Shown: positions 6,066 through 21,546, numbered from the stretch's first letter. The stretch: DNA of 22,525 nt from Candidatus Methylomirabilota bacterium (GCA_046726415.1 JBKPAK010000172.1:1-22525); one strand, 5' to 3'. The notes: generated from the sequence alone by a model not told the origin. Numbers and translations: made by a program.

Positions 6066-6830
6066 TCAGCTCCACGCCAGCCTTCGGCCGTCGCGCTCGA
6101 GGAAACGCGGTCGGACAAGGCCCAGCCTCGCCAGGCGGAACAACGCCGCCCCCCGCAGCACCCCGAGGCCATAGACCACGCTCCGACCGAACGCGATGGA
6201 GGAGGACTCCTTAGTGTAGCGGACGGGGCAGGTTACTTCGGCAATGGCGAAGCCGAACCACATGGCCTGCAGGAGCATCTGGTTGTCGAACACGAAGTCG
6301 TCATCGTTCTCCTGAGGCGGTAGCTCTTGCAAGAGCCGCCGCGAGAACGCTCGGTAGCCGGTATGGTATTCGGAGAGCTTCGCACTCACGAGCAGGTTCT
6401 CCGCCGCGGTCAGGAAGCGGTTGCTGACGTATCTGTAGCGCGGCATGCCTTCCGCGACCGCCTTCCCGCCGAGGATACGCGATCCAAGGGCAACGTCGTA
6501 GAATCCGCTTCCGATGCATGCGGCCAGTGCTGGGATGAGTCGCGGCGTGTACTGGTAGTCGGGGTGCACCACGACGACAATCTCCGCCCCGCGCCGAAGC
6601 GCCTCTGCGTAGCACGTCTTCATGTTCCCGCCGAAGCCGCGATTCTTCGGATGGACGATCGTGTGAAGCTCCAGCCGCCGCGCCTCCTCGACCGTGCGGT
6701 CCCGCGACTGATCGTCCACGACGATGATGTCGTCGACGACGTCCCTCGGAATCTCGAGGACGGTCTTCTCGAGCGTCGCCTCCGCGTTGTATGCGGGCAT
6801 GACGACCGTCACCTTCCGCCCCGAGATCAT
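6066..6830 (-). CDS. Glycosyltransferase family 2 (polyprenol-phosphate sugar synthase / DPM1-like), 254 aa
   Basis: VTVVMPAYNAE, IIVVDDQSRDRT, HPKNRGFGGN, HPDYQY, GSR, HTGYRAFSR and FVFD motifs. Confidence 0.92.
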   Translation of the reverse strand: MISGRKVTVVMPAYNAEATLEKTVLEIPRDVVDDIIVVDDQSRDRTVEEARRLELHTIVHPKNRGFGGNMKTCYAEALRRGAEIVVVVHPDYQYTPRLIPALAACIGSGFYDVALGSRILGGKAVAEGMPRYRYVSNRFLTAAENLLVSAKLSEYHTGYRAFSRRLLQELPPQENDDDFVFDNQMLLQAMWFGFAIAEVTCPVRYTKESSSIAFGRSVVYGLGVLRGAALFRLARLGLVRPRFLERDGRRLAWS

Positions 6831-7573: not shown

Positions 7574-7875
7574 ATGACCAACTACGTCACTCACAATACT
7601 GCCGTTACCCACTTCGTTGAAAGCGACGGCCTCCGCTATGCGTATCGGCGTTGGGTCCGGCAGGCGGCGTCCCGCTCGTCTTCTGCCATCGGTTCCACGG
7701 AACCATGGACGATTGGGATCCCGCGGTCGTCGATGCACTGGCGGCGGAACGGCGGGTCATTTTGTTTGACAATGCCGGCATCGGGTTGTCACGGGGGAGA
7801 CGCCCGACAGCGTCAAGGGGATGGCCGACAGGGTTCAGAATTCATTCGGCTGAATGACTTCAAGCCGGTTGATGC
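7574..7875 (+). pseudogene. Frameshifted, truncated alpha/beta-hydrolase pseudogene
   Basis: GAGGAG RBS before ATG 7574. MTNYVTHNTAVTHFVESDGLRYAYRRW continues after a frameshift (~7652) as PAGGVPLVFCHRFHGTMDDWDPAVVDALAAERRVILFDNAGIGLS, then with further shifts as TPDSVKGMAD and EFIR...VD. It ends before the nucleophile motif. Confidence 0.8.
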
Positions 7876-7968
7876 CCCTGCCTCCACAGCCGCGCGCGTC
7901 GCGTGTGCCGGTTGCCGGCGGCGTGCACTTTGGCTATGGTGGGCCCGCCCGAGAGAGGAGGGCGCGCC

Positions 7969-9477
7969 ATGAAAACGATCCGTAACGTGCTGACTGTGCT
8001 CGCCGCCGTCCTGCTCCTCACCGCGCCCGCCCCCGCGCTCGCGAAGGATCCGTGGGTGGTCGCCTTCGGCGAGGAGCCGTTCACGCTCAACCCGGCGGGC
8101 AAGGGCGCGCTGGCCGCCGTGTCGGATTACGTGCAGATCCACATCTTCGACGCGCTCGTCGACTTCACCGGCGTGAACCTCACGCTGAAGCCGATGCTGG
8201 CCACGCGCTGGGAGAACCCCAGCCCGACGACGTGGCGGTTCCACCTGCGCCGCGACGCGAAGTTCCACAACGGGGATCCCCTCACCGCCGAGGACGTGAA
8301 GTTCACCATCGAGACGCAGCTCGCGAACAAGGGCGCCACCGTGAACGCCTATCTAGGGCCGACCGAGGGCGCGCGGGTGCTCGATCCCTACACGATCGAG
8401 ATCACGACCAGGACGCCCTTCCCGGCTCTGCTGTTCAATCTCTCGCGCGTCCACATCCTGCCGCGCGCCTACGATAAGCTCGGCGCCGACGCCTTCGCGG
8501 CGAAGCCGATCGGGTCCGGCCCCTACCGGTTCGTCGAGTGGCAGCGCGGCCAGCGCATCGTCCTGGAGGCGAACCCGGATTACTGGGGCGGTCAGGCGAC
8601 GCCGAAGCGGCTCGTGTTCCGCCCGATCGTCGATCCCAGCACTCGCGCGTCCGAGCTGCGCGCCGGCGGCGCCGACATCGTCATCAACCCCCCGATCGCC
8701 CAGGTGAAGGAGCTCGGGAGCGGCGACACCCAGATCCTCACGGTGCCGGCCGCGCGCGCCATCGCGTACCCCATCAATACCCTGCAGAAGCCGCTCAACG
8801 ACGTTCGCGTCCGGCGCGCGCTCAATCATGCCATCGATCGCGAGGCCATCGTCCGCAGCCTGCTGCAGGGCTTTGGTCAGGCGACGGGACAACCGTTCGC
8901 GGCTGGCTGGCTGGGCTATGACGAGGCGATCAAGTCGTATCCGTACGATCCCGCCCAGGCGAAGCGCCTGCTGGCCGAAGCGGGCTACCCGAGCGGGTTC
9001 GACGTGACCTGGAACATCTCGACAGGCGCGTTCCTCGCCGACAAGGAGATCGCGGAGGCCGCGGCCGCGATGCTCGGTCAGGCCGGCGTGCGGGTCAGGC
9101 TCGTGCCGACCGAGCGTGCCAAGATCCAGAAGGATCTCCAGGCGGCGACGTTCGACGGGATCACGGCCGGCCAGTGGGGCACGATCGCCGAGTCGGAGAT
9201 CATGGTCCGCTGGTTCTTCCGCACGCCCAAGATCTTCACGCCCGAGCTGGACGCGCGGCTCAACCAGTTGGCGACGGCGGCGGCGGGTGAGGTGGACCGC
9301 GACAAGCGCGCCAGGATCTATCGCGACCTCGCCAAGTTCGCGCACGACGAGGCGCTCTGGCTCTTCATCCATCACCAGGACGAGGTGATCGCCAAGCGCC
9401 GCGAGATCCCCTGGCAGGTGAGCGTTGCGCGCGGCGGCAAGGCACACATCTACTACTTCACCTTGGGCCCTCGCTGA
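7969..9477 (+). CDS. ABC transporter substrate-binding protein, family 5 (DppA/OppA-like), 502 aa
   Basis: GAGGAGG RBS and signal peptide MKTIRNVLTVLAAVLLLTAPAPALA. Motifs PMLATRWE, FHLRRDAKFHNGDPLTAEDVKFT, PIGSGPYRF, DVRVRRALNHAIDRE, YDPAQAKRLLAEAGY. Confidence 0.95.
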   Translation: MKTIRNVLTVLAAVLLLTAPAPALAKDPWVVAFGEEPFTLNPAGKGALAAVSDYVQIHIFDALVDFTGVNLTLKPMLATRWENPSPTTWRFHLRRDAKFHNGDPLTAEDVKFTIETQLANKGATVNAYLGPTEGARVLDPYTIEITTRTPFPALLFNLSRVHILPRAYDKLGADAFAAKPIGSGPYRFVEWQRGQRIVLEANPDYWGGQATPKRLVFRPIVDPSTRASELRAGGADIVINPPIAQVKELGSGDTQILTVPAARAIAYPINTLQKPLNDVRVRRALNHAIDREAIVRSLLQGFGQATGQPFAAGWLGYDEAIKSYPYDPAQAKRLLAEAGYPSGFDVTWNISTGAFLADKEIAEAAAAMLGQAGVRVRLVPTERAKIQKDLQAATFDGITAGQWGTIAESEIMVRWFFRTPKIFTPELDARLNQLATAAAGEVDRDKRARIYRDLAKFAHDEALWLFIHHQDEVIAKRREIPWQVSVARGGKAHIYYFTLGPR

Positions 9478-9503
9478 GCTCGAACGCGGCGCGCGGCTGA
9501 TCC

Positions 9504-10427
9504 GTGCCCGGCTACGTCGTCGGCCGGGTGCTCCAGGCCGCGGTGGCCCTGCTCGGGGTCACCGCCGTCGCGTTCCTGCTCGTCTCCCTCTCCGGAGACC
9601 CGGCGTTCATCCTGCTGTCCCCCGAGGCGGGGGAGGAGCAACGGGCGGCCTTCCGGCGCCTCTACGGCCTGGACGCGCCGCTGCCGGTGCAGTACGTCCG
9701 CTATCTCACGCACGTCGCGCGCGGCGACTTCGGGACCTCGTTCGCGTTCGACCGGCCGGCGATGGCCGTCGTGCTGGAGCGCGCGCCGGCGACCCTCGCG
9801 CTGACTGCGGCCGCGCTCTGCCTGGGAATCGCCGTCGGCGTCCCCGCTGGGGTGCTCGCGGCGGTGAGGGCGGGCGCCGTCCTCGACCGCACGGTGATGG
9901 CCTTCGTCCTCCTCGGACAATCGATCCCCACGTTCTGGCTCGGTCTGGTGATGATCCGGATCTTCGCCGTAAACTTCCGGCTGGTCCCGGTCTCGGGATA
10001 CGGCACGCCGCTCCACCTGTTGATGCCCGCCGTCGTCCTCGGCCTCTACCTGGCCGCGCTGCTGGCCCGCGTCACGCGCTCCGAGATGCTCGAGGCGATG
10101 GCCCAGGACTACGTGCGGACGGCTCGCGCCAAGGGCCTGCCCGAGCGCGCAGTGACCTTAGCGCATGCCCTCAAGAACGCGCTCCTCCCCATCGTGACCG
10201 TGATCGGGCTCCAGCTGGGCGCGCTGCTCGGCGGTGCCGTCATCACGGAGACGGTCTTCGCGTGGCCTGGCGTGGGCACGCTCGTCCTTGACGCGATCCT
10301 GCGAAAGGACTATCCGGTCGTGCTGGCCGTGGTGGAGTTCGTGGCCGCGGCATTCATCGTCATCAACATGGGGCTGGATGTGCTGTACGGCGTCCTCGAT
10401 CCGCGCCTCCGGCTCGCGCGGCGATGA
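9504..10427 (+). CDS. ABC transporter permease (DppB/OppB-like)
   Basis: GLDAPLPVQY, GDFGTS, SIPTFWLG, EAA loop DYVRTARAKGL, HALKNA, ETVFAWPGVG and KDYPVV. Confidence 0.95.
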   Translation: MPGYVVGRVLQAAVALLGVTAVAFLLVSLSGDPAFILLSPEAGEEQRAAFRRLYGLDAPLPVQYVRYLTHVARGDFGTSFAFDRPAMAVVLERAPATLALTAAALCLGIAVGVPAGVLAAVRAGAVLDRTVMAFVLLGQSIPTFWLGLVMIRIFAVNFRLVPVSGYGTPLHLLMPAVVLGLYLAALLARVTRSEMLEAMAQDYVRTARAKGLPERAVTLAHALKNALLPIVTVIGLQLGALLGGAVITETVFAWPGVGTLVLDAILRKDYPVVLAVVEFVAAAFIVINMGLDVLYGVLDPRLRLARR

Positions 10428-11329
10428 CGACCACGCCCCTTTCGGTGGCCGCATCGGCATCGCCCGCGACCCGGCGGCCGGCGGCGTCCCGGCTGGCACC
10501 CGTGTGGCGCGCGGTGGGGCCCGGAGGGACGGTGGTGGCGGGGGTCGTGCTCGTCGCCGTGCTCGCGCCCGCGCTGGCGTGGCATTCGCTGAGCGCGTTC
10601 GACCTCGCGCATCGGCTGGCGCCGCCGGTCTGGCAGCCGGGCGGTACGTGGACGCACCCGCTGGGCACGGACGCCCTGGGTCGGGACATCGCGAGCCGCA
10701 TCCTTCACGGCGCGCGCACGTCACTCGGTCTGGCCGGCGCGGCCGTTCTGCTGGCGGCGGCGCTCGGGATCCTGCTCGGGCTCGTGTCCGGGTACGCGGG
10801 CTCGTGGGCCGACGCGATCATCATGCGGCTGGCCGACGTCCAGCTCTCGTTCCCCTATCTGCTGCTCGCGATCGCGGTGATGGCGCTCCTCAAGCCGTCG
10901 CTGGTGAACCTCCTGATCGTCCTGGTGCTGCGGAGCTGGGTGGTCTACGCGCGGCTCATCCGGGTGGTGACGCTCAGCGCGCGCGAGCGCGAGTTCGTGA
11001 CGGCCGCCCGCGCCCTCGGCGCGGGAGGCGCGCGGATCGTGTTCCGCCACATCGCCCCGAACGTGGTGGGCCCGTCGATCGTCGTCTCGAGCTTCCAGCT
11101 CGCCGAGCTGATCATCGTGGAGTCGTCCCTGTCGTTCCTCGGCCTCGGCGTCCAGCCGCCCGCGCCGAGCTGGGGCGGGATGGTGAGTGAGGGTCGGGAG
11201 TACATCGGGACGGCCTGGTGGCTCTCGGGGTTCCCCGGCCTCGCCATCGTCGTCACTGTGCTAGGCGCCAACCTGTTCGGCGACAGTCTCAGGCGATCCC
11301 TCGACCCGCGCCTGCGCAATGTCGGGTAG
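10424..11329 (+). CDS. ABC transporter permease (DppC/OppC-like)
   Basis: HPLGTDALGRDI, GARTSL, EFVTAARALGA, LSFLGLGVQPPAPSWG and NLFGDSLR..LDPR. ATGA overlap with the upstream permease. Confidence 0.95.
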   Translation: MTTTPLSVAASASPATRRPAASRLAPVWRAVGPGGTVVAGVVLVAVLAPALAWHSLSAFDLAHRLAPPVWQPGGTWTHPLGTDALGRDIASRILHGARTSLGLAGAAVLLAAALGILLGLVSGYAGSWADAIIMRLADVQLSFPYLLLAIAVMALLKPSLVNLLIVLVLRSWVVYARLIRVVTLSAREREFVTAARALGAGGARIVFRHIAPNVVGPSIVVSSFQLAELIIVESSLSFLGLGVQPPAPSWGGMVSEGREYIGTAWWLSGFPGLAIVVTVLGANLFGDSLRRSLDPRLRNVG

Positions 11330-11350
11330 GATGGCAGCGAGAGCGCGCCC

Positions 11351-12640
11351 ATGAGACTCGAGATCGGGTCCGTGCACGTCCGCGGCGTCGAGCTCGGCCG
11401 CCGGACCGAGCTGACCGATCACACGCTCGTGGTCGATCCCGCCGAGCTGCGGGCCCTCGTCCTCGACGATTCCCATTTCGCGGACGTCCGCGTGCACCTG
11501 GCGCGGCCCGGGGAGTCGATCCGGATCATCCATGTCCTCGACGTCGTCGAGCCGCGCTGGAAGGTGGCCGGTCCCGGTGGCGTCTTCCCCGGGTTCGTGT
11601 CGCCGCCGATCACCGTCGGCGAGGGGCGGACGCACCGGCTGGATGGCGTGGCCGTCCTCGAGGTTGGCGCTCCGGTGCCCGGCGAGTCCACGGTCTTCCG
11701 CGAACGGCTGGTCGACATGACGGGACCCGGCGCCGAGCTGTCCCCCTTCGCGCGCACGGAGAACGTGGTGCTCGAGTTCTCGCCGAACCTGGCCTTCTTC
11801 CCGCCCGGCTCGGAAAAGATGGACGACGTCCTCTCGGGCGGGCCGGAGTCGAACGAGTACATGCGCGCAGTCCAGGCGGCGGGGCTGAAGGTCGCCGCGC
11901 ATCTGGGGCGCACGGCTGGCGAGAGGATCCCGGACGATGTCGAAGCGTTCGAGCTCGGCCCGTGCGATCCCGCCCTGCCCCGGGTCGTCTCGCTCCATCA
12001 GGAAGTCACTGCCTGCCCCTATCTCTACGGCGTCCGCGTGTCGCTGCCCCTCGGGACGATGATCCATCCCAACGAAGTGTTCGATGGGGCCGTCGTGCGG
12101 TGGAACCGGGGGTACGTCGGGTCGACGTATTGGGAGCAGAACCATCCGCTCCTGGTGGAGCTCTGCCGGCGCCACGGCCGCGAGCTCAACTACCTCGGCG
12201 GCATCGTGTTCGGCGGGGTGACGGCCTCGGCCGCGGACAAGGAAGCCTCGTCGAGCTCGGTCTCGAAGATCGCGCGCCTCCTGCGGGCGGAGGCGGCGCT
12301 CGTGGTCGGCATCAACGGCTCGAACCACGCAGTCGACCTCATGCTCACGATCCAGAAGTGCGAGCGCGCTGGCATCAAGACCACGCTTGTCTACAACGAC
12401 GTGGGCGAGGGACCCGACGACCCCGGGTTCATCTTCGCGGTGCCGGAGGCGGACGCGATCGTCAACTCGGGCTGGCGCAACGCCAAGGTGACATTACCCG
12501 CGCTCCAGACGATCATCGGGGGCGAGTCGCTGATCGCGCCCGAGATGGACGCGCGGAAGGAGCTGACGGTGCCGTTGCGGTACCTCCACGGGGCCGTCGA
12601 CCCCATGGGGCACTCTCGGCTGACGGTCAGGTTCGAGTAG
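11351..12640 (+). CDS. Glycine/sarcosine/betaine reductase component B alpha/beta subunit (GrdE/GrdG/GrdI family), 429 aa
   Basis: MRLEIG..HVRGVELG..T, ARPGESIRII...DVVEPRWK, VFPGF...VGEGRTHRLDG, DMTGPGAELSPF, IHPNEVFDGA, QNHP, AGIKT and PEADAIVNSG. It lies directly upstream of the selenoprotein B gene. Confidence 0.9.
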   Translation: MRLEIGSVHVRGVELGRRTELTDHTLVVDPAELRALVLDDSHFADVRVHLARPGESIRIIHVLDVVEPRWKVAGPGGVFPGFVSPPITVGEGRTHRLDGVAVLEVGAPVPGESTVFRERLVDMTGPGAELSPFARTENVVLEFSPNLAFFPPGSEKMDDVLSGGPESNEYMRAVQAAGLKVAAHLGRTAGERIPDDVEAFELGPCDPALPRVVSLHQEVTACPYLYGVRVSLPLGTMIHPNEVFDGAVVRWNRGYVGSTYWEQNHPLLVELCRRHGRELNYLGGIVFGGVTASAADKEASSSSVSKIARLLRAEAALVVGINGSNHAVDLMLTIQKCERAGIKTTLVYNDVGEGPDDPGFIFAVPEADAIVNSGWRNAKVTLPALQTIIGGESLIAPEMDARKELTVPLRYLHGAVDPMGHSRLTVRFE

Positions 12641-12651
12641 CGGAGGATTCT

Positions 12652-13956
12652 ATGACCACGTTCCGGGTCGTGCACTTCCTCAATCAGTTCTTCGCCGGCA
12701 TCGGTGCCGAGGACAAGGCCGACTCGCCACCGGGTCGGCGCGAGGGGCCGGTCGGGCCCGGACGGGTGCTCCGGCAGGCCCTCGACGCCCGTGCCGACGT
12801 CGTCGCCACCGTGTACTGCGGAGACAACCACGTCGCGGAGCGACCGGAGGCGATCGACGACATCCTCGCCCTGATCAGGGAGGCGCGCCCCGACATCGTC
12901 GTCGCGGGCCCGGCCTTCTCGGCCGGTCGCTACGGGATGGCCTGTGGCGAGGTCGCGCTGCGCGCGCGGGAGCGGCTCGGCGTGACGGCGGTCACTGGCA
13001 TGCATGTGGACAACGCGGCGACCGAGATGTACCGCACCCGCATCGTAATCGCCAGCACGGGCCCTGCCGCAATCGGGATGGCGAACGCGCTCCAGGTGAT
13101 GGCGCGGTTGGCCCTGAAGCTCGCGTCCGGCGTTGCGCTGGGATCGCCGGTCGACGAGGGGTACGTTCCCACCGGCCGTCGCGTCTTCGAGGTGGCCAAG
13201 CGCCCGGCGGCCGAGCGCGCGGTCGACATGCTGCTCCGCAAGGTGCGCGGAGAACCGTTCACGACCGAGTGGGCCGTCCCGCGGTACCACCGGGTTCCCG
13301 CCGCACCGCCCCTGCGCGATCCCGCGCTGGCGACGATCGCGCTCGTCACCACCGGCGGTCTGGTCCCCCGCGGCAACCCCGACCGCCTGGAGTCTGGCTA
13401 CGTCACCAAGTGGCTTCGCTATCCGATCGCCGGTGTCAACTCGCTGCCTGCGGACCGCTGGCAGTCCGTGCACGGGGGGTTCGACACCACGCGGATCAAC
13501 GAGGATCCGCACCGCGTGGTGCCGCTCGACGTCGTGCGCGAGCTGGAACGCGACGGCGGGATCGGTCGCCTCCATCCCGAGCTCTTCACGACCACCGGCA
13601 ATACCTCGGTGATTCCGACCTTGCGCCGCTTCGCGCAGGAGATGAGCCGGGAGCTGAAGGCTGGGGGCGTCGAGGGGGTGATCCTCACCTCCACCTGAGG
13701 GTCGTGCAGCCGCGGCGGCGCCGCGCTGGCAAAGGAACTCGACGCGCAGGGAATCCCGGTGGCCCAGATCAGCGCTCTCGACGCGCTCGCAAGATCGGTC
13801 GGCTCGAATCGCATTGTCCGAGGCAAGGCGATCACCAGCGTCGTCGGCGATCCCGGCCTGAGCCCGGCCGAGGAGAAGCGACTCCGCAAGGCTCTCGTGC
13901 TGAAGGCGCTCGAGGCGCTCCGGACGGTGGTCGAGGAGCCGCTGATTCTTGGGTGA
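12652..13956 (+). CDS. grdB: Glycine/betaine/sarcosine reductase family selenoprotein B, 434 aa, with selenocysteine at residue 349 (UGA 13696-13698 read through)
   Basis: GGAGG RBS before ATG 12652. Motifs HFLNQFFAGIGAEDKAD, CGDN, GPAFSAGRYGMACG, VTTGGLVPRGNPDRLES and HGGFD lead to VILTST-UGA-GSCSRGGAALAKELDAQGIPVAQI...VGSNRIV....GDP, matching the conserved VILTSTUGTCTRCGA of GrdB. The frame continues to a stop at 13956. The symbol is family-level; the substrate is unknown. Confidence 0.93.
13705..13731 (+). promoter_or_regulatory. Putative bacterial SECIS hairpin
   Basis: CGCGGC (13711-13716) pairs with GCCGCG (13720-13725) around a GGC loop, extended by CAG/CTG and TG/CA pairs with single bulges. 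The apical loop starts with G, 19 nt after the UGA. Confidence 0.7.
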
Positions 13957-14059: not shown

Positions 14060-14905
14060 TCACCCCCCGGACCCCCGCCCCACCGCTTCTCGCACCTCTT
14101 CCACGGCGAGCGAGCCCACGTCGAGGAAGGCGAGGATGCGACACGGACACGCCTCGCCGCCCTCGAACTTCCACGGGAACGCCCCGATGATGCAGCGCGT
14201 GTTCAGCACCTTCTCGATGTCGCCGCCAACATTCTCGGCGTGGATGCATCCCTCGGGAAAGGCCAGATAGTGCATGGGGAAGATCTCCTCCACGACTATC
14301 CGCCCGCTCTTGTGGTGCCGGTACTCGTACTCGCCGAAGAAGTCGCGCACGGGTCGGCCGACCTTTTCCTCGAACCGCCGCGTGAGATCGGGCCGCATGT
14401 AGCGAATGGTGGTGTTCATCGGATGATCGCCGGAGCCGGCGTCGATGCCCCACCAGGCGATCTGCATGTCGTGCATCCACCGGGCGAGCTCCTGCGTCCC
14501 TCCCGGGTGCATGCAGAAGTAGCGCGTGAGGTCCTGCTGGGGCTTGCCCTCGTAGTAGCGGTGGTAGCCCGTGTGCAGGATGAGGATGTCCCCGCGCTTG
14601 ACCTCCATGCGGTCGGTGATCTGCTTGGGGGTCAGGATGCTCCAGTCCTCCACGCAATCGGAGACGTCGACCACCACGCCCTCATGCACCAGCTTGGTGA
14701 GGGGCAGGGAGGCGATGTCGCCGGCGCCGTCGGCGGCGTGCATGGGCCCGTCGAGATGCGTGCCCACGTGCAGCGAGGTCTCCACGCGCTGCGAGACGAT
14801 GCGGTTCGTCTGCAGGGTTTGCGTGTAGTAGATCTTGGAACCGGGGTAACCGATCCAGCCCGGAGTGTGCATGTTCCACGGGTGCGACAGGTCGACCAGC
14901 CTCAT
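14060..14905 (-). CDS. Cyclase-family (kynurenine formamidase-like) metal-dependent hydrolase, 281 aa
   Basis: MRLVDLSH start, HVGTHLDGPMH (HxGTHxDxPxH), GDILILHTG, WGID, H..AEN and GGEACPCR motifs; GGGGAGG RBS. Confidence 0.9.
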   Translation of the reverse strand: MRLVDLSHPWNMHTPGWIGYPGSKIYYTQTLQTNRIVSQRVETSLHVGTHLDGPMHAADGAGDIASLPLTKLVHEGVVVDVSDCVEDWSILTPKQITDRMEVKRGDILILHTGYHRYYEGKPQQDLTRYFCMHPGGTQELARWMHDMQIAWWGIDAGSGDHPMNTTIRYMRPDLTRRFEEKVGRPVRDFFGEYEYRHHKSGRIVVEEIFPMHYLAFPEGCIHAENVGGDIEKVLNTRCIIGAFPWKFEGGEACPCRILAFLDVGSLAVEEVREAVGRGSGG

Positions 14906-14994
14906 GCGGATCCCTCCCCATCGACTGCGATGAGTGCCGCCCGGCGCCGGGCCACGGCCAAGCCGTCGTCACGGCGGGCGCCATGGTAGGTCGT

Positions 14995-15023
14995 TTGACA
15001 ATCGATTGTCGATTGGATAGTTT
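14995..15023 (+). promoter_or_regulatory. Sigma70-type promoter overlapped by a perfect 14-bp palindromic operator
   Basis: TTGACA (14995-15000), 17-nt spacer, TAGTTT (15018-15023). The palindrome GACAATCGATTGTC is at 14997-15010. This is an AT-rich patch in the divergent intergenic region. Confidence 0.75.
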
Positions 15024-15039
15024 CCTGCGCGGTGAGCCG

Positions 15040-15675
15040 ATGACCATCGTCTGGGAACGCGTGATCCCGCCCAAGCAGGGGCTCGGCTTCACCGTCCGCC
15101 GCGGCCAGCACCTGCGGGTCATCGACCTCGAGGGCCAGCAGGTCGTCGACATGGCCCTCTTCAACGCCGACAATCCCCGCGAGAAGCTGTCCACGTCGTA
15201 CTCGCGCACGCGCTACCTCCCTCGCCCGGGCGCGGAGTACGTGCCGCGCGACCGGCTGACGGAAGGCGATACGCTCATGTCGACCATCTGCCGGCCTATG
15301 ATGACGTTCGTCCGGGAAACGCCGGAGCCCAAGGGCGTCCATGACACGCACAACCGCATGTGCAACCGGTTCCTCTACGAGTCGTACGGGCTGGGCCCGC
15401 GCGACGGCTGCCATGAGAACATCGCCAACGCGGTGGCCCCGTGGGGGCTCTTGCCCGAGGACATCCCCGACACCATGGATCTCTTCATGGACTATCACCA
15501 CGATTGCGCTCGCGGGCGGTGGGTGATCGGGGAGCCAGTGTCGAAGGCGGGCGACTATGTGGAGTTCCGCGCGGACATGGACCTCATCGTCGGGCTGTCC
15601 AACTGCCCGCTCGATGTGCTCGCTCCGTGCAACGCGTACCGCTGCACGCCCGTCAAGGTCGAGATCTTCGAGTAG
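15040..15675 (+). CDS. Urea carboxylase-associated family protein (DUF1989), 211 aa
   Basis: VRRGQHLRVIDLEGQQVVD, FNADNPREKLS, HDT...C, GCHEN, SKAGDYVEFRADMDLIVGLSNCP and CN motifs. The start is placed at ATG 15040, downstream of the promoter. Confidence 0.9.
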   Translation: MTIVWERVIPPKQGLGFTVRRGQHLRVIDLEGQQVVDMALFNADNPREKLSTSYSRTRYLPRPGAEYVPRDRLTEGDTLMSTICRPMMTFVRETPEPKGVHDTHNRMCNRFLYESYGLGPRDGCHENIANAVAPWGLLPEDIPDTMDLFMDYHHDCARGRWVIGEPVSKAGDYVEFRADMDLIVGLSNCPLDVLAPCNAYRCTPVKVEIFE

Positions 15676-15895
15676 CGCGAGCGGGGGTGGTCGGTGGGGT
15701 GGCCCGTGACGGCCACCATCGAGGCCCTCGGCCCGCAGCGGCTCGCGGAACGTCACCGTTCGCCGTCCCCGCGTGCTTCCGAGCGCGCGGTAGCGCGACG
15801 CAGACGGGAACGCTCGTGAAGGACAGCGCGCGTCCCGGGCTGGCCGGGCCGGCGCGAACCCCGTGTCGGGGCCTCGTGTTCACGAGGAGCTCCCG

Positions 15896-17146
15896 ATGGA
15901 GCTGATCGTCCGGAACGCGAGGTTGCGGGGTCAGGCCGAAGCGCGTGACATCGCGATCGACGCGGGGACGGTCGCGGCGGTCGAACCGGCGATCGCCGCT
16001 CGCGGCGAACGGGAGATCGACGCCACTGGCGGTCTGGTGACGCCGCCGCTGGTCAACCCCCACGTCCATCTCGACAAGTGCCGTCTGGGCGAGGTCATGC
16101 GCCCGAACCTGTCGCAGACGCTCCAGGAGGCCATCGAGATCACGTGGGACTGGAAGCGCCGCTACACCGAGAAGGACATCGGCGAGCGTGCGGGAGCGGT
16201 GGTCGAGATGGCCGTGCGCGAGGGCACCCTGGCCCTCCGCGCCTTTGCCGACGTCGATACGATCGGTGGGCTCACGCCGGTGAAGGGCCTGCTCGCCATC
16301 AAAGCGCGGTACCGCGACCTCCTGCGGTTCGAAGTGGTGGCCTTCCCGCAGGAGGGAATTCTTCGCGACCCCGGCACCGCTGACCTTCTGCGCGACGCCA
16401 TGGCGCTGGGGGCCGACGTGGCGGGCGGCCTGCCGTGGTACGAGATGACCGACGAGGACGCCCGTCGGCACATCGACGTCGTGTTCGCCATCGCGCGCGA
16501 GCACGACGCCGATGTCCACATGCTGGTCGACGACACGGACGATCCCAACTCCCGCAGCCTCGAGTACTTGGCCGTCAAGACCCTGCGCGAGGGCTGGGGC
16601 GGCCGGGTGAGCGCCAGCCACTGTGGCGCCCTCGCGGCGTACAATGCGCCCTACGCGGCCAAGGTCATCGGGCTCGTGAAGGAGGCCGGTGTTTCCATCG
16701 TCAGCAACCCGCACATCAGTCTCGTGCTGGCCGGGCGCCGCGACGCCGAGCCCGTGCGGCGCGGCATCACGCGCGTCCGCGAACTGCTCGCGGCCGGCGT
16801 GAACGTGGCTTCCGGGCAGGACGACGTCGATGACCCGTACTATCCGTTCGGACGCGCGAGCCAGCTGGAGGTCGCGCTGTTCATGGCTCACACGGCGCAC
16901 CTCACGTATCCCGCCGAGATCGAGACCGTGTTTGATATGGTGACGGTCAACGCCGCCCGGGCCATGCGCCTGCCGCGCTACGGCGTGGGCCCCGGCGACA
17001 GCGGTGACCTCCTCGTGTGGGATGCGGCCACGGTCAAAGAGATCCTCACTCGCCAGCGCCCGCCCGCCTGGGTGGTGAAGGATGGCCGCGTCGTCGCCCG
17101 CAGCACGGTCGTGAGCGAGCTGACGAGCGAGGCTCGCCGCGGATGA
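15896..17146 (+). CDS. Amidohydrolase-family deaminase, cytosine deaminase (CodA)-like, 416 aa
   Basis: GAGGAG RBS; IDATGGLVTPPLVNPHVHLDK, VVAFPQEG, VSASHC, GITRVREL, GQDDVDDPYYPFG, TVNAARAM and VVKDGRVVA. Confidence 0.88.
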   Translation: MELIVRNARLRGQAEARDIAIDAGTVAAVEPAIAARGEREIDATGGLVTPPLVNPHVHLDKCRLGEVMRPNLSQTLQEAIEITWDWKRRYTEKDIGERAGAVVEMAVREGTLALRAFADVDTIGGLTPVKGLLAIKARYRDLLRFEVVAFPQEGILRDPGTADLLRDAMALGADVAGGLPWYEMTDEDARRHIDVVFAIAREHDADVHMLVDDTDDPNSRSLEYLAVKTLREGWGGRVSASHCGALAAYNAPYAAKVIGLVKEAGVSIVSNPHISLVLAGRRDAEPVRRGITRVRELLAAGVNVASGQDDVDDPYYPFGRASQLEVALFMAHTAHLTYPAEIETVFDMVTVNAARAMRLPRYGVGPGDSGDLLVWDAATVKEILTRQRPPAWVVKDGRVVARSTVVSELTSEARRG

Positions 17147-17218
17147 ACGGGCGTGCCGTGCCCGACCTGTCCGTGATCATCGGCGAGACTGGGGCATCCC
17201 TGGTCCGGACATGGTCCG

Positions 17219-17503
17219 ATGCGGCGGAAGGAAGACCACGGACTGCTCACTGGACGCGGCCAATATGCGGCAGCGGTGGTGCAGATCCTGGAGGAGACCC
17301 TATCCTGCTGAATCCACTCGGTGTCAAGGGCGTGGACGAGGGCGGCAGCTCTGGATGCGGTGCGGCGACCGGCAACGCCGTGGCCGATGCGCTGGCGCCC
17401 TCGGCGTCGAGATCAGGGCGCTGCCGCTATCCCCCCCGACCGGCGGCGTGCGCTGATCCAGGCCGCCGGCCGCGAACATTCTCGATCCGGAGGAACGCGA
17501 TGA
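17219..17503 (+). pseudogene. Internally deleted xanthine dehydrogenase/CoxL-family molybdopterin-binding subunit pseudogene
   Basis: The N-terminal motif RRKEDHGLLTGRGQY (17219-17266) is joined almost directly to the C-terminal motif LNPLGVKGVDEGG...NAVADALAP / GVEIRALPLSP / DRRRALI, with frameshifts. Its last stop overlaps the ATG of the next gene. Confidence 0.8.
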
Positions 17504-18480
17504 CAGGAGGGCGTGGCTCGGCCCTGTCGGCGCTGGCCGTCGCCGCCACGTTTGCAATGGCGGTGGCGACGATCTCCGCCCAGGAACCCGTCAAGTTGAA
17601 GGTCGGCAACCTCGGCTTCCCCTCGCACTCGGCCATGATCATCAACGTGCTCAAGGAGAAGGGTTTCGATCGCAAGCACGGCGTCGACATGGAGGTGAAG
17701 GCGTATGGCGCGGTCAGCGCATACTACGGTTCCGTCGCCTCCGGCGAGACGGACGGCGTCCCCGGCGGGCCCCTCGTGTTCCAGCGGATGCGGCTCGAGG
17801 GCGTGCCGCTCAAGATCGTGAGCACCCTCGTCGACATGACCTCGATGTCCGTCGTCACGAAGGATCCGTCGATCCGATCGTTCACCGACCTTAAGGGCAA
17901 GACGATCGCCGCCGACATGGCGTCGTCCGAGTACGCCGTGCTCAGCGTGTACGCCAAGAACAAGGGTCTCGCCCTCGGTCGCGACGTGACCGTGGTCCAG
18001 GCCGGTCCCCCGCTCGTCCGCACCCAGCTGGCCGCCGACCGGGTCGACGCGGGCATGACGTGGGAACCGACGGCCACCATGACCATGCGCGACAACGCGA
18101 ACTATCGCATCGTGTTCAGCGGGAAGGAGGCCTGGCGCGAGATCACCGGAAAGGACGGCTGGCTTTTGGCCCTCGGTCTGCGCGAGGACTGGATCGCGAA
18201 GAATGCGGCAGCCCTGCCGCGCGTCATCGCCGCCTTCGACGAGGCGGCGCGGTTCATGCGCGCGAACCCCGACGAGTGCGACCGCATCCTCCAGCAGGCC
18301 ATCAAGCTGCCGCCCGGGGCGTTCAAGGACATGATCACGGCGCCCCGCGTGGTGTTCCGGGTGGTTTCCACCAGCGACCCGTCAGCCCGCGAGACCTTGT
18401 GGGAAGTCATCAAGGTCGCCATCGGCGAGGGCTACTTCAAGGAGCCGCCGCGCGATCAGTCGGTGATCCACGTGCCGTGA
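17500..18480 (+). CDS. ABC transporter substrate-binding protein, NitT/TauT (SsuA/TauA-like) family, 326 aa
   Basis: GGAGGA RBS before ATG 17500 and a signal peptide ending ...ATISA. Motifs GFDRKHGVDMEV, SIRSFTDLKGKTIA and VDAGMTWEP. Confidence 0.9.
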   Translation: MTGGRGSALSALAVAATFAMAVATISAQEPVKLKVGNLGFPSHSAMIINVLKEKGFDRKHGVDMEVKAYGAVSAYYGSVASGETDGVPGGPLVFQRMRLEGVPLKIVSTLVDMTSMSVVTKDPSIRSFTDLKGKTIAADMASSEYAVLSVYAKNKGLALGRDVTVVQAGPPLVRTQLAADRVDAGMTWEPTATMTMRDNANYRIVFSGKEAWREITGKDGWLLALGLREDWIAKNAAALPRVIAAFDEAARFMRANPDECDRILQQAIKLPPGAFKDMITAPRVVFRVVSTSDPSARETLWEVIKVAIGEGYFKEPPRDQSVIHVP

Positions 18481-18534
18481 GCCGGGCCGGCGCCGATGAC
18501 CGCCGAGAGGCGGGTCCGGAGCGGCTGACCGCCG

Positions 18535-19323
18535 ATGGCTGACCGCCTCGAGCGACCGGGCGAGGCCGTCGAGGCCAGCGACGCCACCCTCGGCGGGCGC
18601 TGGCCGAAGGAGACCATTGTCTCGCTGGCGGCCTTCGCCGTGCTCTGGCAGCTCGCCTCCATGGTCTTGCCGCCGTTCGTGGCCCCGAGCTGGGTTCGCA
18701 TCGGCAAGAGCCTGCTCGACATTGCGACGCGCCCCGAATTCATCGCCGTCACTGTGGGCCGGGTGGCCGCCGCGCTCGTGATCTCGTTCGCCCTCGGCAT
18801 GATCCTCGCCATGGCCATGTACTGGTGGCGCCACCTCGAGCGCTACCTCATGCCGCTCATCAAGCTGCTCATGGCGGTGCCGGTGCTGTGCTGGATCCTC
18901 TTCGCCGTGCTGTGGTTCAAGGTGCGCGAGGTGCGGATCGCGTTCATCCTGGTCGTCGTGTGCGCTCCCATCTTCGTGATCGACGTGCTCGACGGCATGC
19001 ACGGGGTGAGCAAGGAGCTGCGCGACATGGTGCGCGCACTCCGGCCGACGGCCCGTCAGTTCTTCACCAAGCTCGTCGTGCCGGCCACGGTCCCGGCCAT
19101 CCTCACGAGCTGGAAGGTCAACCTGAGCCTGTCCATCCGCGTGGTGACAATGGCGGAACTGGTGGGGGCGACATCGGGAATCGGCTACGCCCTCATGCAG
19201 GCCAACGAGACGTTCTCGGTGGCCGACGTGTTTGCGTGGACGGTGGTACTGGTGCTGATCCTGATGGCCGCCAACATCGCGGTGACCCGCCTGGAGCGGC
19301 GGTTGCTGGTCTGGCGCGAATGA
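18535..19323 (+). CDS. ABC transporter permease, NitT/TauT (SsuC/TauC-like) family
   Basis: Hydrophobic helices; LWQL, T.GRV, VP.LCW, PATVPAIL and AELVGATSGIGY. Confidence 0.92.
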   Translation: MADRLERPGEAVEASDATLGGRWPKETIVSLAAFAVLWQLASMVLPPFVAPSWVRIGKSLLDIATRPEFIAVTVGRVAAALVISFALGMILAMAMYWWRHLERYLMPLIKLLMAVPVLCWILFAVLWFKVREVRIAFILVVVCAPIFVIDVLDGMHGVSKELRDMVRALRPTARQFFTKLVVPATVPAILTSWKVNLSLSIRVVTMAELVGATSGIGYALMQANETFSVADVFAWTVVLVLILMAANIAVTRLERRLLVWRE

Positions 19324-20168
19324 CGGCGCCTGTCACCGGACGGGCGGGGAAGGGCTCACCCGACGCCGGGTCGACCGCCGACAGCGACATCGACGTGCGC
19401 GGCCTGCGCAAGGTCTTTCGCCACAAGGGGTCTCGGGCGGCGGTGGTGGCCATCGAGCGCCTGAGCTTCACCATCCGGCGCGGGGAGATCGTCGCTATCG
19501 TCGGCACCACTGGCTGCGGCAAGTCGACGTTCTTCAACATCCTGATCGGCCTCGATCAGCCCACCGAGGGCCGCATCGAGATCGGCGGCCGCACGCCCTA
19601 CGGCGACTTCGCCGCGTTTCGGGGCCGCATAGCCATCATTTTCCAGCAGGACCGTCTGCTGCCCTGGCGCTCGCTGATCGACAACGTCACCCTGGGACTC
19701 GAGATCATGGGGATCGAGGCCGCCGAGCGGCGCCAGCGCGCCGAGCGGTGGCTGTCGCGCCTGGGCCTCGAGCGGTTCCTGGGCGCCTTCCCGAACGAGC
19801 TGTCAGGTGGAATGCGCCAGCGGGCGGCCCTCGCCCGGGCGTTCGCGGTGAACCCCGAGATCCTGCTGGCCGACGAGGCGTTTGGCCATCTCGACGAGGT
19901 CACGGCCCGGGAGATCCGGAGCCAGTTCTTCGAGATGGTGCGCGCCGAAGGGAAGACGGCCATCCTCGTCACCCACCAGCTGGAGGAGGCCATCGACACG
20001 AGCGACCGGCTTCTCGTGTTCGGCCGCCCCGCCACGCTGCTCGCTGACCTGCGCCTGAAGAGCTGGCCGACCGACGAGCTGGCCGGGCTGCGCGCGCGCA
20101 TCCAGCGGATGCTGCAGACCAACGAAGCCCATCCCGACGTTCTGGCCACCGCCAAGGAGGCGCGATGA
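19320..20168 (+). CDS. ABC transporter ATP-binding protein, NitT/TauT (SsuB/TauB-like) family
   Basis: Walker A GTTGCGKST, FQ.DRLLPWRS, signature LSGGMRQR, Walker B ILLADE and H-loop LVTH. ATG 19320 overlaps the permease stop. Confidence 0.95.
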   Translation: MTAPVTGRAGKGSPDAGSTADSDIDVRGLRKVFRHKGSRAAVVAIERLSFTIRRGEIVAIVGTTGCGKSTFFNILIGLDQPTEGRIEIGGRTPYGDFAAFRGRIAIIFQQDRLLPWRSLIDNVTLGLEIMGIEAAERRQRAERWLSRLGLERFLGAFPNELSGGMRQRAALARAFAVNPEILLADEAFGHLDEVTAREIRSQFFEMVRAEGKTAILVTHQLEEAIDTSDRLLVFGRPATLLADLRLKSWPTDELAGLRARIQRMLQTNEAHPDVLATAKEAR

Positions 20169-20262
20169 CCGCTCCGCGCTCCCGCCGAGGAGTCGGAATG
20201 ACGCTGCCTCGCTCGCGCCAAGGACTCGTCGTCACGCTGTTCGCCGCTGCCAAGGAGTTGCC

Positions 20263-21546
20263 ATGAAGCTCGATAGCGCCGCCCAGAGAGTCTTCGACCA
20301 CATCGACGTCGACGAGCTGGTGAAGGTCGCCCTCGATCTCGGCAACATCGACAGCCCCACCGGCAGCGAGGGACCGGTGGCGGACTACGTGTACGACTGG
20401 CTCATCCGCCAGGGTATCGCTGCCCGCAAGGTCGCCCTCGTGCCGGACCGCCCGAACGTCGTCGGCGTGGTGCCCGGCACCAGCCACGGCCGCAGCCTCG
20501 TCTTCAACAGCCACATGGACACGACGATCCACAAGGACGAGTGGTGGACGACCCGGCGCGCGGCCGATCCCATCTTCCATTCGGCGTGGCGGGACGGCGA
20601 CGCCTTGGTGGGCAACGGCGTGTGCAACGACAAGGGCCCCATGGCCACCTGGCTCCTCGCCGCCAAGGCGATCGTCGACAGCGGCATCATCTTCAAGGGC
20701 GATCTCGTGCTGATGGCGGTGGTGGGCGAGATCGGCGTGGAGCCGGTCGACGAGTTCCAACCGCCGGCCTATCTGGCCAAGGAGCCCGGCACGCGCTACG
20801 CCATCACCCGCGGCGGCGTCGCCGACTTCGCGCTGGTGGCGGAGGGAACCGACTTCGGCATCGTCGGAGTCGAGGCGGGCAAGGCGTTCTTCAAGCTGAC
20901 GGTGTTCGGCGACGACGCGCCCATCTACACGCCCTACATCAACCGCCCCACCGCCATCGAGCAGAACCCCAACGCCATCCTCCGCATGGCCGCGCTGCTG
21001 CCGCGGCTGGAGGAATGGGCGTACAATTACGAGCGCACGCACCGCTACGAGGGGCCGGGCGGCGTGATCGTGCCGCGGGTGAACGTGGGGGCCATCCGTG
21101 GCGGGGTGCCCTACAAGATCACCAAGACCGTCCAGCAGTGCGCCATCTACGTCGACGTGCGGACCACGCCCGTGCAGAACCCGCTCGATCTCCGCGAGGA
21201 TCTGCGGCGGCTCGTGAGGGGTGCCGGGCTGTCCGGCGAGGTGGAACTTTACACCTACCGCCCGGCGTTCGAGATCGATCCGCGACGGGCGGAGCCGCTG
21301 GTGGGCGCCATCACCCGGGCGCACGAGGCGGTGATGGGCGGGAGTCCCAAGCCGGCGGCGCCGCCCTTCTCCAGCATGTGGCGCGACATCAACTGCTTCA
21401 ACGAGATGCGGATTCCGGCCGTAACCTACGGGCCGGGGGTGAGCGTGGGCGGCGGGCAGTTCGTCATGCCGATCTCCGCCCTCGTCACCGGCACTCGTCT
21501 GTACGCGCTGACGGCGCTCGACCTCTGCAACCAGGATCGTTCGTGA
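20263..21546 (+). CDS. M20/M25/M40 family metallohydrolase (ArgE/DapE-like), atypical active site, 427 aa
   Basis: SPTGSE, RPNVVG, LVFNSHMDT, GNGVCNDKG, VVGEIG, AEGT, NVGAIRGG and IPAVTYGPG; AAGGAG RBS. Confidence 0.88.
   Translation: MKLDSAAQRVFDHIDVDELVKVALDLGNIDSPTGSEGPVADYVYDWLIRQGIAARKVALVPDRPNVVGVVPGTSHGRSLVFNSHMDTTIHKDEWWTTRRAADPIFHSAWRDGDALVGNGVCNDKGPMATWLLAAKAIVDSGIIFKGDLVLMAVVGEIGVEPVDEFQPPAYLAKEPGTRYAITRGGVADFALVAEGTDFGIVGVEAGKAFFKLTVFGDDAPIYTPYINRPTAIEQNPNAILRMAALLPRLEEWAYNYERTHRYEGPGGVIVPRVNVGAIRGGVPYKITKTVQQCAIYVDVRTTPVQNPLDLREDLRRLVRGAGLSGEVELYTYRPAFEIDPRRAEPLVGAITRAHEAVMGGSPKPAAPPFSSMWRDINCFNEMRIPAVTYGPGVSVGGGQFVMPISALVTGTRLYALTALDLCNQDRS

Follow-up and report, generated by a model that had tools for sequence, protein, structure and literature searches.

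The stretch of DNA analysed here, referred to as the window, is the whole 22,525-bp contig C172 of a Candidatus Methylomirabilota bacterium (genome G000; 7.6 Mb in 352 contigs, with estimates of 98% completeness and 4.66% contamination). It carries an operon of five genes on the plus strand (7969-13956) for parts of an ATP-binding cassette (ABC) importer and for both subunits of a selenoenzyme related to protein B of glycine reductase (Grd). The operon is real and well conserved, and it is not a stand-alone new system. We think it probable that it provides the membrane parts of an importer and a substrate-specific, pyruvoyl-independent protein B for a Grd system that has several B proteins, lacks GrdD and acts on an imported compound.

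A first-pass annotation, made from the window sequence, had described a tightly packed operon of an SBP_bac_5-type binding protein, two permeases, a GrdE-family subunit and a GrdB-family selenoprotein, with gaps of 26 bp or less, in a GC-rich, non-clostridial context. This description is accurate: the spacings computed from the coordinates are 26, -4 (an overlap), 21 and 11 nt, the GC content is about 63-72%, and the genome, at 68% GC, is non-clostridial. As described there, the operon has no grdA, grdC, grdD, thioredoxin or sel genes, and none was found in the rest of the window (0 of 27 open reading frames (ORFs) in a Pfam scan that left out most ORFs shorter than about 128 aa).

Divergence of the two subunits

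The GrdB-family selenoprotein (12652-13956, plus strand; 434 aa, with selenocysteine (Sec) at U349) passes the broad family models (TIGR01918, 456.7 bits against a cut-off of 65.45; PF07355, 415.4 against 22). It stays under every NCBIfam equivalog cut-off, with 455.5 of the 800 bits required for GrdF (NF040794), 425.5 of 602.2 for GrdB (TIGR01917) and 398.8 of 775 for GrdH (NF040795). The D-proline reductase PrdB model (TIGR04483, cut-off 300) gave 73.8 bits, over the C-terminal part only. The GrdE-family subunit (11351-12640, plus strand; PF09338, 285 bits) is likewise under its equivalog cut-offs (GrdG NF040793, 229.5 of 780; FarE NF053623, 127.7 of 675). Controls came from a Bacillota sample in which 125 of 401 genomes have PF07355. 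We collected 119 GrdB-type frames from more than 100 loci and scanned 42 of them against the equivalogs; 15 exceeded the cut-off for GrdB, one for GrdF and eight for GrdH, and 18 were under all of them. The 15 Bacillota GrdB controls score 620-756 bits on the glycine GrdB model. A search of genome contigs with the GrdB-type protein returned 28 loci, all at 48% identity or less and thus without a close ortholog, and a sequence search of the PDB returned no structure at E <= 0.01 for either subunit.

The accessible text of Nobu et al. (PMC9751293) gives a motif for glycine GrdB, YxNx6GGE...CGD...GPxF[NF]AGRYG...AHGGxD[QTAP]...RV[IL]PxD...TxGNxTxV. As given there, only one of its six elements (CGD) is present in the GrdB-type protein of the window. 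The whole motif occurs in 34 of the 119 frames, all from the Bacillota sample, and in none of the four paralogs of the window genome. The window protein also fails the GrdF motif.

Phylogenies of the kind proposed in the first-pass annotation place both subunits outside the characterised clades. The GrdB tree was built from 74 sequences: eight metagenomic proteins and those 66 of the 119 frames that remained once most partial rows, and rows with 75% or more identity to a representative, had been removed. In it, labelled GrdB, GrdF and GrdH sequences form one clade (25 rows; support of 96 in the Shimodaira-Hasegawa-like approximate likelihood-ratio test, SH-aLRT) that does not include the window protein, which sits in a five-row clade (99) within a ten-row clade (100). 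The type found on contig C9 of the same genome is a weakly supported sister (88). "Unassigned" rows of this tree are those under the cut-offs or not scanned, and all of them fail the published motif. The GrdE tree (36 rows) is congruent, with the window and C9 types in one clade (97) and a canonical GrdE/GrdG/GrdI clade (98) that excludes both. The GrdH clade (eight rows, SH-aLRT 100) and the GrdI clade (seven rows, 100) each exclude the window proteins. Because both subunits lie outside the glycine, sarcosine and betaine clades and below the equivalog cut-offs, the earlier description of a divergent component B for an unknown substrate holds. Database sources label the orthologs "glycine reductase" or "betaine reductase"; the public annotation "glycine/betaine reductase", cut at the Sec codon, is misleading for this protein.

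Active-site residues

Canonical GrdE and GrdG have the segment SGNC-VSAC, in which the first Cys aligns with residue 242 of a 428-aa GrdE. This agrees with the Cys-derived pyruvoyl peptide of C. difficile GrdE, numbered aa 242-266 in the accessible part of PMC9908766. The GrdE-type protein of the window and its orthologs on contig C68 of a relative (G024) and on a long metagenome contig (L139) have RWNR and a four-residue gap at this site; Arg occupies the Cys column and both cysteines are gone. The cleavage Cys is present in eight of 35 aligned GrdE-family rows, six of them beside labelled GrdB, one beside GrdF and one unassigned, and the seven proteins beside GrdH have SGSF/Y. FarE and GrdI, according to the available portion of PMC10838667, also lack these cysteines and are not proproteins. 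Because its cleavage cysteines are missing, as in FarE and GrdI, the GrdE-type subunit of the window is predicted to be unprocessed and free of a pyruvoyl group, and we infer that the leaving group of the substrate needs no Schiff-base activation.

The GrdB-type subunit also departs from the canonical pattern. The Sec motif is of the form UxxCxxG, with UGSCSRG in the window and UGSCNRG in the G024 ortholog, compared with UGTCTRC in canonical rows. The CxxC is described as protective for Sec and as lost in FarB (accessible part of PMC10838667).

In several Dehalococcoidia/Chloroflexota records (L040, L046-L048, L052, L056 and L059), about 10 kb holds three genes of the GrdB type and three or four of the GrdE type. 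The motif is UGTCNRC throughout, and the pyruvoyl Cys is in none of the aligned rows.

Decoding of the in-frame UGA

The sole in-frame TGA of the GrdB-type frame (13696-13698, plus strand) is a true Sec codon and not an assembly slip, because all 119 frames have exactly one TGA, in the identical alignment column, and because near-identical soil-metagenome contigs span the UGA unchanged in three of the four runs examined. In the window protein and the 119 homologous frames, about 85 conserved codons continue in frame after the TGA. The Sec residue lies in TSTUGSCSRGG, which has the S/T-T-U-G context.

A SECIS hairpin begins 12-14 nt past the UGA. In the window this distance is 12 nt, and the RNA fold is a 6-bp stem, CGCGGC/GCCGCG, at 13711-13725 (plus strand) with the loop GGC at 13717-13719. 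In 62 homologs (60 distinct rows), 96.2% of the cells of a seven-pair helix are paired, compared with 19-71% pairing in controls in which the helix was slid along the alignment. Both sides have changed in four of the seven pairs, and the covariation score was reached by none of 500 shuffles, although coding constraint overlaps the helix so that the shuffles overstate independence. In the stem of the window, a change from Cys to Gly (UGC to GGC) is compensated on the opposite side by GCA to GCC. No family, SECIS elements included, passed the Rfam gathering thresholds anywhere in the window, and the matches around the UGA were at chance level only.

The window genome encodes the machinery for Sec incorporation. 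We identified tRNA-Sec on contig C313, with selA (592 bits) and selB (374 bits) beside it, and selD on C223 (11994-12938, 336 bits). The selD gene itself has an in-frame TGA, so the selenophosphate synthetase is itself a selenoprotein.

Weak matches to the C-terminal part of PF07355/GrdB occur in the window genome at C156:55541-55894, C78:1306-1728 and C49:3035-3337, and many more in relatives (22-34 bits, 22-34% identity to residues ~185-431). An in-frame TGA is present in each of those read through (C156, C78 and the places in relatives). These sequences suggest that a short PrdB-like selenoprotein family may be widespread in the order.

Partner proteins

The window genome encodes four full-length GrdB/GrdE pairs, on contigs C9, C21, C165 and C172. 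The pair on C21 is followed by grdC (8386-9846; NF040746, 604 bits against a cut-off of 450) and grdA (9849-10289; PF04723, 177.6 bits), the latter with one TGA and the active-site motif CFVU. We surveyed 41 genomes of the order, the window genome and 40 relatives (G001-G040). A full-length GrdB homolog (best E <= 1e-100) was found in 19 of the 41. GrdA was found in 16 genomes and GrdC in the identical 16, all of them among the 19 that have GrdB; neither was found in the 22 genomes without a full-length GrdB homolog. On the long metagenome contig L139, which carries an ortholog of the operon, grdC, grdA and an amidase gene are divergent from, and adjoin, the binding-protein gene. On contig C176 of G024, an operon of the sister type (GrdB 54% identical) is back-to-back with grdC-grdA. 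Two thioredoxin matches (PF00085) were found in the window genome, on C318 and C112, both away from the grd loci.

According to the accessible part of PMC10838667, it is the norm in this enzyme family for one A/C system to serve several B proteins of different substrate specificity. The pair in the window most likely supplies common partner proteins whose genes lie elsewhere in the genome. The suggestion of the first-pass annotation that component B stands alone, perhaps without canonical A and C components, is contradicted by grdA and grdC on C21, by the 16 of 19 relatives with both genes and by their adjacency in L139 and G024. The genome search that it proposed recovered grdA, grdC, selA, selB, selD and tRNA-Sec; grdD was not found. 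The refutation that it foresaw is half borne out: A and C are present elsewhere in the genome, but the two subunits fall outside the characterised clades and, with no GrdD found, there is no complete grdACD set.

Two further grd loci were noted. The pair on C165 (65-6263; L018) is in GrdB-then-GrdE order and has the motif UGTGTRC. A gene for a RidA-domain protein lies before it, an 826-aa DAO-FAO_M-GCV_T protein (a dimethylglycine/sarcosine dehydrogenase architecture) is encoded after it, and a sigma-54 activator is nearby. In another relative (G002:C8:123334-124750), the grdC match is split into two parts, which cover model positions 2-79 and 83-476 and are separated by a few bases; this may be due to a frameshift or an assembly error.

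Terminal enzyme of the pathway

Unexpectedly, GrdD was not identified in the window genome, where the best match to its model (NF040747, cut-off 350) scores 26 bits. It was found in none of the 41 genomes of the order (E <= 1e-10), several of which consist of only 10-30 contigs, and hence in none of the 19 that have GrdB. The same model detected GrdD in 122 of the 401 Bacillota genomes, with scores up to 605 bits, and in 119 of the 125 that have GrdB (by overlap of the two tables). GrdD was also missing from all five genomes of other phyla that have a non-canonical GrdB (G041-G045: Dehalococcoidia, one as a single-record chromosome, Nitrospinaceae, a Deltaproteobacteria-labelled metagenome-assembled genome (MAG) and Actinomycetota); GrdC was over its cut-off in all five. 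No recurrent stand-in for GrdD was found beside grdC-grdA in six relatives, where the neighbours are genes for Zn-ADH, PhyH, DsbA-like, thioredoxin, SDR and NMT1-type ABC proteins. We found no description of this clade or of Grd systems that lack GrdD in the literature searched, which did not cover subscription journals.

Importer genes and gene order

The first gene of the operon encodes a periplasmic solute-binding protein (SBP) of the SBP_bac_5 family (7969-9477, plus strand; PF00496, 315 bits; peptide/opine/nickel cluster). The ORF (7903-9477) is longest from a GTG at 7903, and the likely start is the ATG at 7969, which gives a signal-peptide-like N-terminus (MKTIRNVLTVLAAVLLLTAPAPALA). 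Two permease genes follow on the same strand, one of the DppB/NikB type (9504-10427; PF00528 and PF19300; Opp2B, 320 bits against a cut-off of 350) and one of the DppC/NikC type (10424-11329; PF00528; Opp2C, 274 bits against 300), which overlaps the preceding permease gene by 4 nt. The SBP is far below all NCBIfam equivalog cut-offs (NikA, GsiB, DppA, OppA and CntA). The solved chains nearest to it are 5u4o, AgaA 6hlx, AapF 7kz8, HbpA, AccA and NikA, with E values from 1e-45 to 1e-30.

The pairing of ABC genes with component B is kept as one module, a point that the first-pass annotation had put forward for checking. The order SBP-permease-permease-GrdE-GrdB is found at three loci of the window type (the window, G024:C68 and L139) and at three of the sister type (G000:C9, G024:C176 and G001:C24). 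The two close orthologs came one from the search of the order (G024) and one, a long contig, from the metagenome scan (L139). The L139 proteins are 80-85% identical to the five of the window (SBP 85%, GrdB 83%) and those of G024:C68 are 69-78% identical (SBP 73%). The flanks of the three window-type loci are unrelated; at E 1e-10, neither L139 nor L066 gave a match to any protein encoded beside the operon in the window.

At the three window-type loci there are no Dpp-type ATPase genes, in the operon or elsewhere in the locus. The sister operon on C9 has a Dpp-type ATPase pair upstream, on the other strand. Because the window genome has 98 SBP_bac_5 matches and 34 matches to the oligo_HPY ATPase domain, sharing of ATPases is evidently the rule for its Dpp/Opp-type sets, judging from these gene counts.

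Further along C9, some 3 kb past the Dpp-type ATPase genes that accompany the sister operon, two adjoining ORFs (L017, 17417-18660) have parts of a phage-integrase domain and look like a split integrase.

Alternative explanations

Four other explanations were weighed. The protein could be a divergent component B of a reductase for a known substrate (betaine, or glycine or sarcosine), so that novelty would be confined to the lineage. Its top NCBIfam names are indeed GrdF and GrdG, the database names are "glycine" or "betaine reductase", and the absence of the pyruvoyl cysteine is shared with GrdI. We nevertheless regard this as unlikely, given scores of 399-456 bits against cut-offs of 602-800, placement outside the GrdH and GrdI clades (SH-aLRT 100 each) and failure of the published GrdB and GrdF motifs. 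The accessible literature takes glycine and sarcosine to require the pyruvoyl/Schiff-base route that is missing here, and the importer is of the peptide/opine/nickel type, whereas the betaine transporter OpuD lies beside the betaine-type B genes of Synergistota (available portion of PMC10838667). A different possibility is that linkage to the importer is incidental and the substrate is endogenous, or is released from another imported compound by neighbouring hydrolases. With 98 SBP_bac_5 genes in the genome, no ATPase in the operon, and amidase, amidohydrolase or M20 genes near several loci, this is conceivable. Retention of the five-gene order, with spacings of 4-26 nt, at 69-85% protein identity in three loci with differing flanks and of the sister type in three more makes it decidedly unlikely, and the hydrolase neighbours differ in family from locus to locus.

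That the reductase is self-sufficient and needs neither GrdA nor GrdC seems very unlikely to us. In its favour, the 22.5-kb window is without A or C genes, the module has changed flanks from locus to locus, and three relatives have GrdB with no GrdA or GrdC found. Against this, GrdA and GrdC are present in the window genome, adjoin the orthologous operon in L139 and the sister operon in G024, and accompany GrdB in 16 of 19 relatives, with neither found in the 22 genomes that have no full-length GrdB homolog; the three exceptions are MAGs that are 81-92% complete. We give almost no credence to the idea that translation ends at the TGA, or that the gene is decaying, and that a 348-aa product is everything, even though about 120 database relatives among the matches listed are all called at about 348 aa. 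Truncation at Sec is the usual artefact of gene callers, whereas the 119 frames run on for about 85 conserved codons, the SECIS helix has compensatory changes and the Sec machinery is complete.

Some observations nevertheless count against our preferred reading, a pyruvoyl-independent protein B for an imported compound in a Grd system with shared partners and no GrdD. Both trees are "quick" searches, unrooted and with SH-aLRT support only, and their GrdE, GrdG and GrdI labels were taken from adjacency to NCBIfam-labelled GrdB, GrdF and GrdH and not from a test of those proteins themselves. The GrdB-type protein lacks the third residue (the last Cys) of UxxCxxC. The SBP is about equally far from opine, peptide, glutathione/heme and nickel binders, among them an agropinic-acid binder, AapF, HbpA/DppA, AccA, GsiB and NikA. 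No GrdA or GrdC was found in three of the 19 relatives with GrdB (G003, G020 and G021; 81-92% complete), and without GrdD the known downstream chemistry cannot simply be assumed. Finally, placement of grdA and grdC in the same cell as the operon rests on binning, because they come from a different contig in an assembly of 352 contigs with an estimated contamination of 4.66%, although L139 and G024 supply independent physical linkage in relatives.

Proposed pathway

In the pathway that we favour, with a pyruvoyl-independent protein B and shared partners, a carboxylate-bearing nitrogen (or onium) compound would be taken up via the SBP_bac_5 system, as the conserved gene linkage suggests, with ATPases that may be borrowed from elsewhere in the genome. 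The U349 selenolate would then attack the carbon beside the carboxylate and expel the leaving group, a chemistry consistent with the sequence features of the subunits. A pyruvoyl Schiff base would take no part in this step because the GrdE-type subunit lacks the Cys242-type cleavage site, and the step would resemble those of betaine reductase GrdHI and fluoroacetate reductase FarBE. The Se-bound carboxyalkyl group would probably be handed to the CFVU selenoprotein GrdA encoded on C21 and processed with GrdC, presumably with reducing power from the thioredoxin system. Because no GrdD was found in the lineage, the last step is probably not the canonical GrdD thioester/acetyl-phosphate step.

More speculatively, these genes may represent an undescribed selenoenzyme branch in soil bacteria. 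Its pyruvoyl-independent B protein would reductively cleave an imported carboxylate of the opine, peptide or onium type, outside the substrate range of all known Grd enzymes, and would feed a pathway of GrdA and GrdC only, in which the Se-bound acyl group is disposed of without GrdD and perhaps without acetyl phosphate. We offer this version tentatively and consider it doubtful in its full extent.

Comparison with known systems

A near parallel is betaine reductase (GrdH and GrdI) of Peptoclostridium (Eubacterium) acidaminophilum and its relatives. Both systems have the two Pfam families, Sec in a T-U-G context and a SECIS element, and GrdHI is also one of several B pairs that share GrdA and protein C. 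Like the GrdE-type subunit of the window, GrdI has no Cys242-type cleavage site and so is not a pyruvoyl proprotein (accessible part of PMC10838667). The window proteins differ in their GrdH score (398.8 of 775), in their position outside the GrdH and GrdI clades and in having UxxCxxG, compared with UGTCTRCG in labelled GrdH rows. They also differ in their SBP_bac_5-type importer and in a genome in which no GrdD was found.

Fluoroacetate reductase (FarB and FarE) of Cloacibacillus porcorum MFA1 (Synergistota) shows that a protein B of the Grd family can act on a new substrate. FarE is without the two processing cysteines, the CxxC of FarB is altered, and the common GrdA/GrdC machinery is used (as reported in the available portion of PMC10838667). 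Unlike FarBE, the window proteins score only 127.7 of 675 on FarE, keep the first Cys of the CxxC in GrdB, are encoded with an ABC importer and belong to a soil host of another phylum.

Identity to glycine GrdB/GrdE and sarcosine GrdF/GrdG of Stickland-fermenting Bacillota is 44-50% for GrdB and 30-35% for GrdE. The Sec position and SECIS element are the same, and there is likewise a partner GrdA carrying CFVU. In contrast to these enzymes, the window pair has no pyruvoyl-forming Cys, has one of the six motif elements and scores below the equivalogs, and GrdD accompanies GrdB in 119 of 125 Bacillota genomes compared with none of 19 in the order of the window. The canonical cluster order is grdX-grdE-grdA-grdB-grdC-grdD, from which the gene order in the window differs. 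Importers of the Dpp/Nik/Gsi/opine type (SBP_bac_5 cluster) have the same combination of a binding protein and two BPD_transp_1 permeases of the DppBC/NikBC type. Unlike them, the window operon has no ATPase genes, has an SBP below the equivalogs and is shared with a selenoenzyme.

Environmental distribution and significance

To our knowledge, Grd-family selenoenzymes are known almost only from Stickland-fermenting anaerobes of gut and sediment, where they act on four substrates (glycine, sarcosine, betaine and the recently added fluoroacetate). The present soil bacterium, with its large genome, has four B pairs, none of a characterised type. Soil-metagenome runs carry the window stretch: five runs from five studies have at least half of its sampled words, and one of these runs may be the source sample. 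Among the matches listed, about 65 metagenomic protein clusters at 70-82% identity are all mis-called as a 348-aa "glycine/betaine reductase", which shows that this clade is frequent in environmental sequences. A review (accessible part of PMC13188914) notes 63 predicted selenoproteins in one Methylomirabilota MAG.

The consistent absence of GrdD from genomes that retain GrdA and GrdC calls into question whether these environmental systems end, as textbooks have it, in acetyl phosphate and ATP. This matters where metagenome studies equate "glycine reductase" with energy conservation. Coupling to an importer offers a tractable route to the substrate, via the ligand of the binding protein.

Flanking genes

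A scan for promoters and terminators in the window found one promoter-like site, in grdE, and, on the minus strand, one terminator-like site; neither exceeds chance expectation. The next gene 3' of the operon encodes a cyclase on the opposite strand (14060-14905), with which a separate cluster begins (14060-21546). The cluster includes this cyclase/arylformamidase-like gene (minus strand), a DUF1989 gene and a cytosine-deaminase-like amidohydrolase (NF005748, 365 bits, below the cut-off of 438). Genes for an NMT1/SsuA-type SBP, a permease, an ATPase and an M20 peptidase are also present. From its gene content, the cluster looks like a system for uptake and hydrolysis of some nitrogen compound. 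It is not kept beside the orthologous operons.

On the 5' side, a 1.1-kb gap between a GT2 gene (6066-6830, minus strand) and the SBP gene contains a 68-aa ORF (7651-7857, plus strand). By eye, its sequence (..PLVFCHRFHGTMDDWDP..VILFDNAGIGLS..) resembles the start of an alpha/beta-hydrolase, and it may be a gene remnant.

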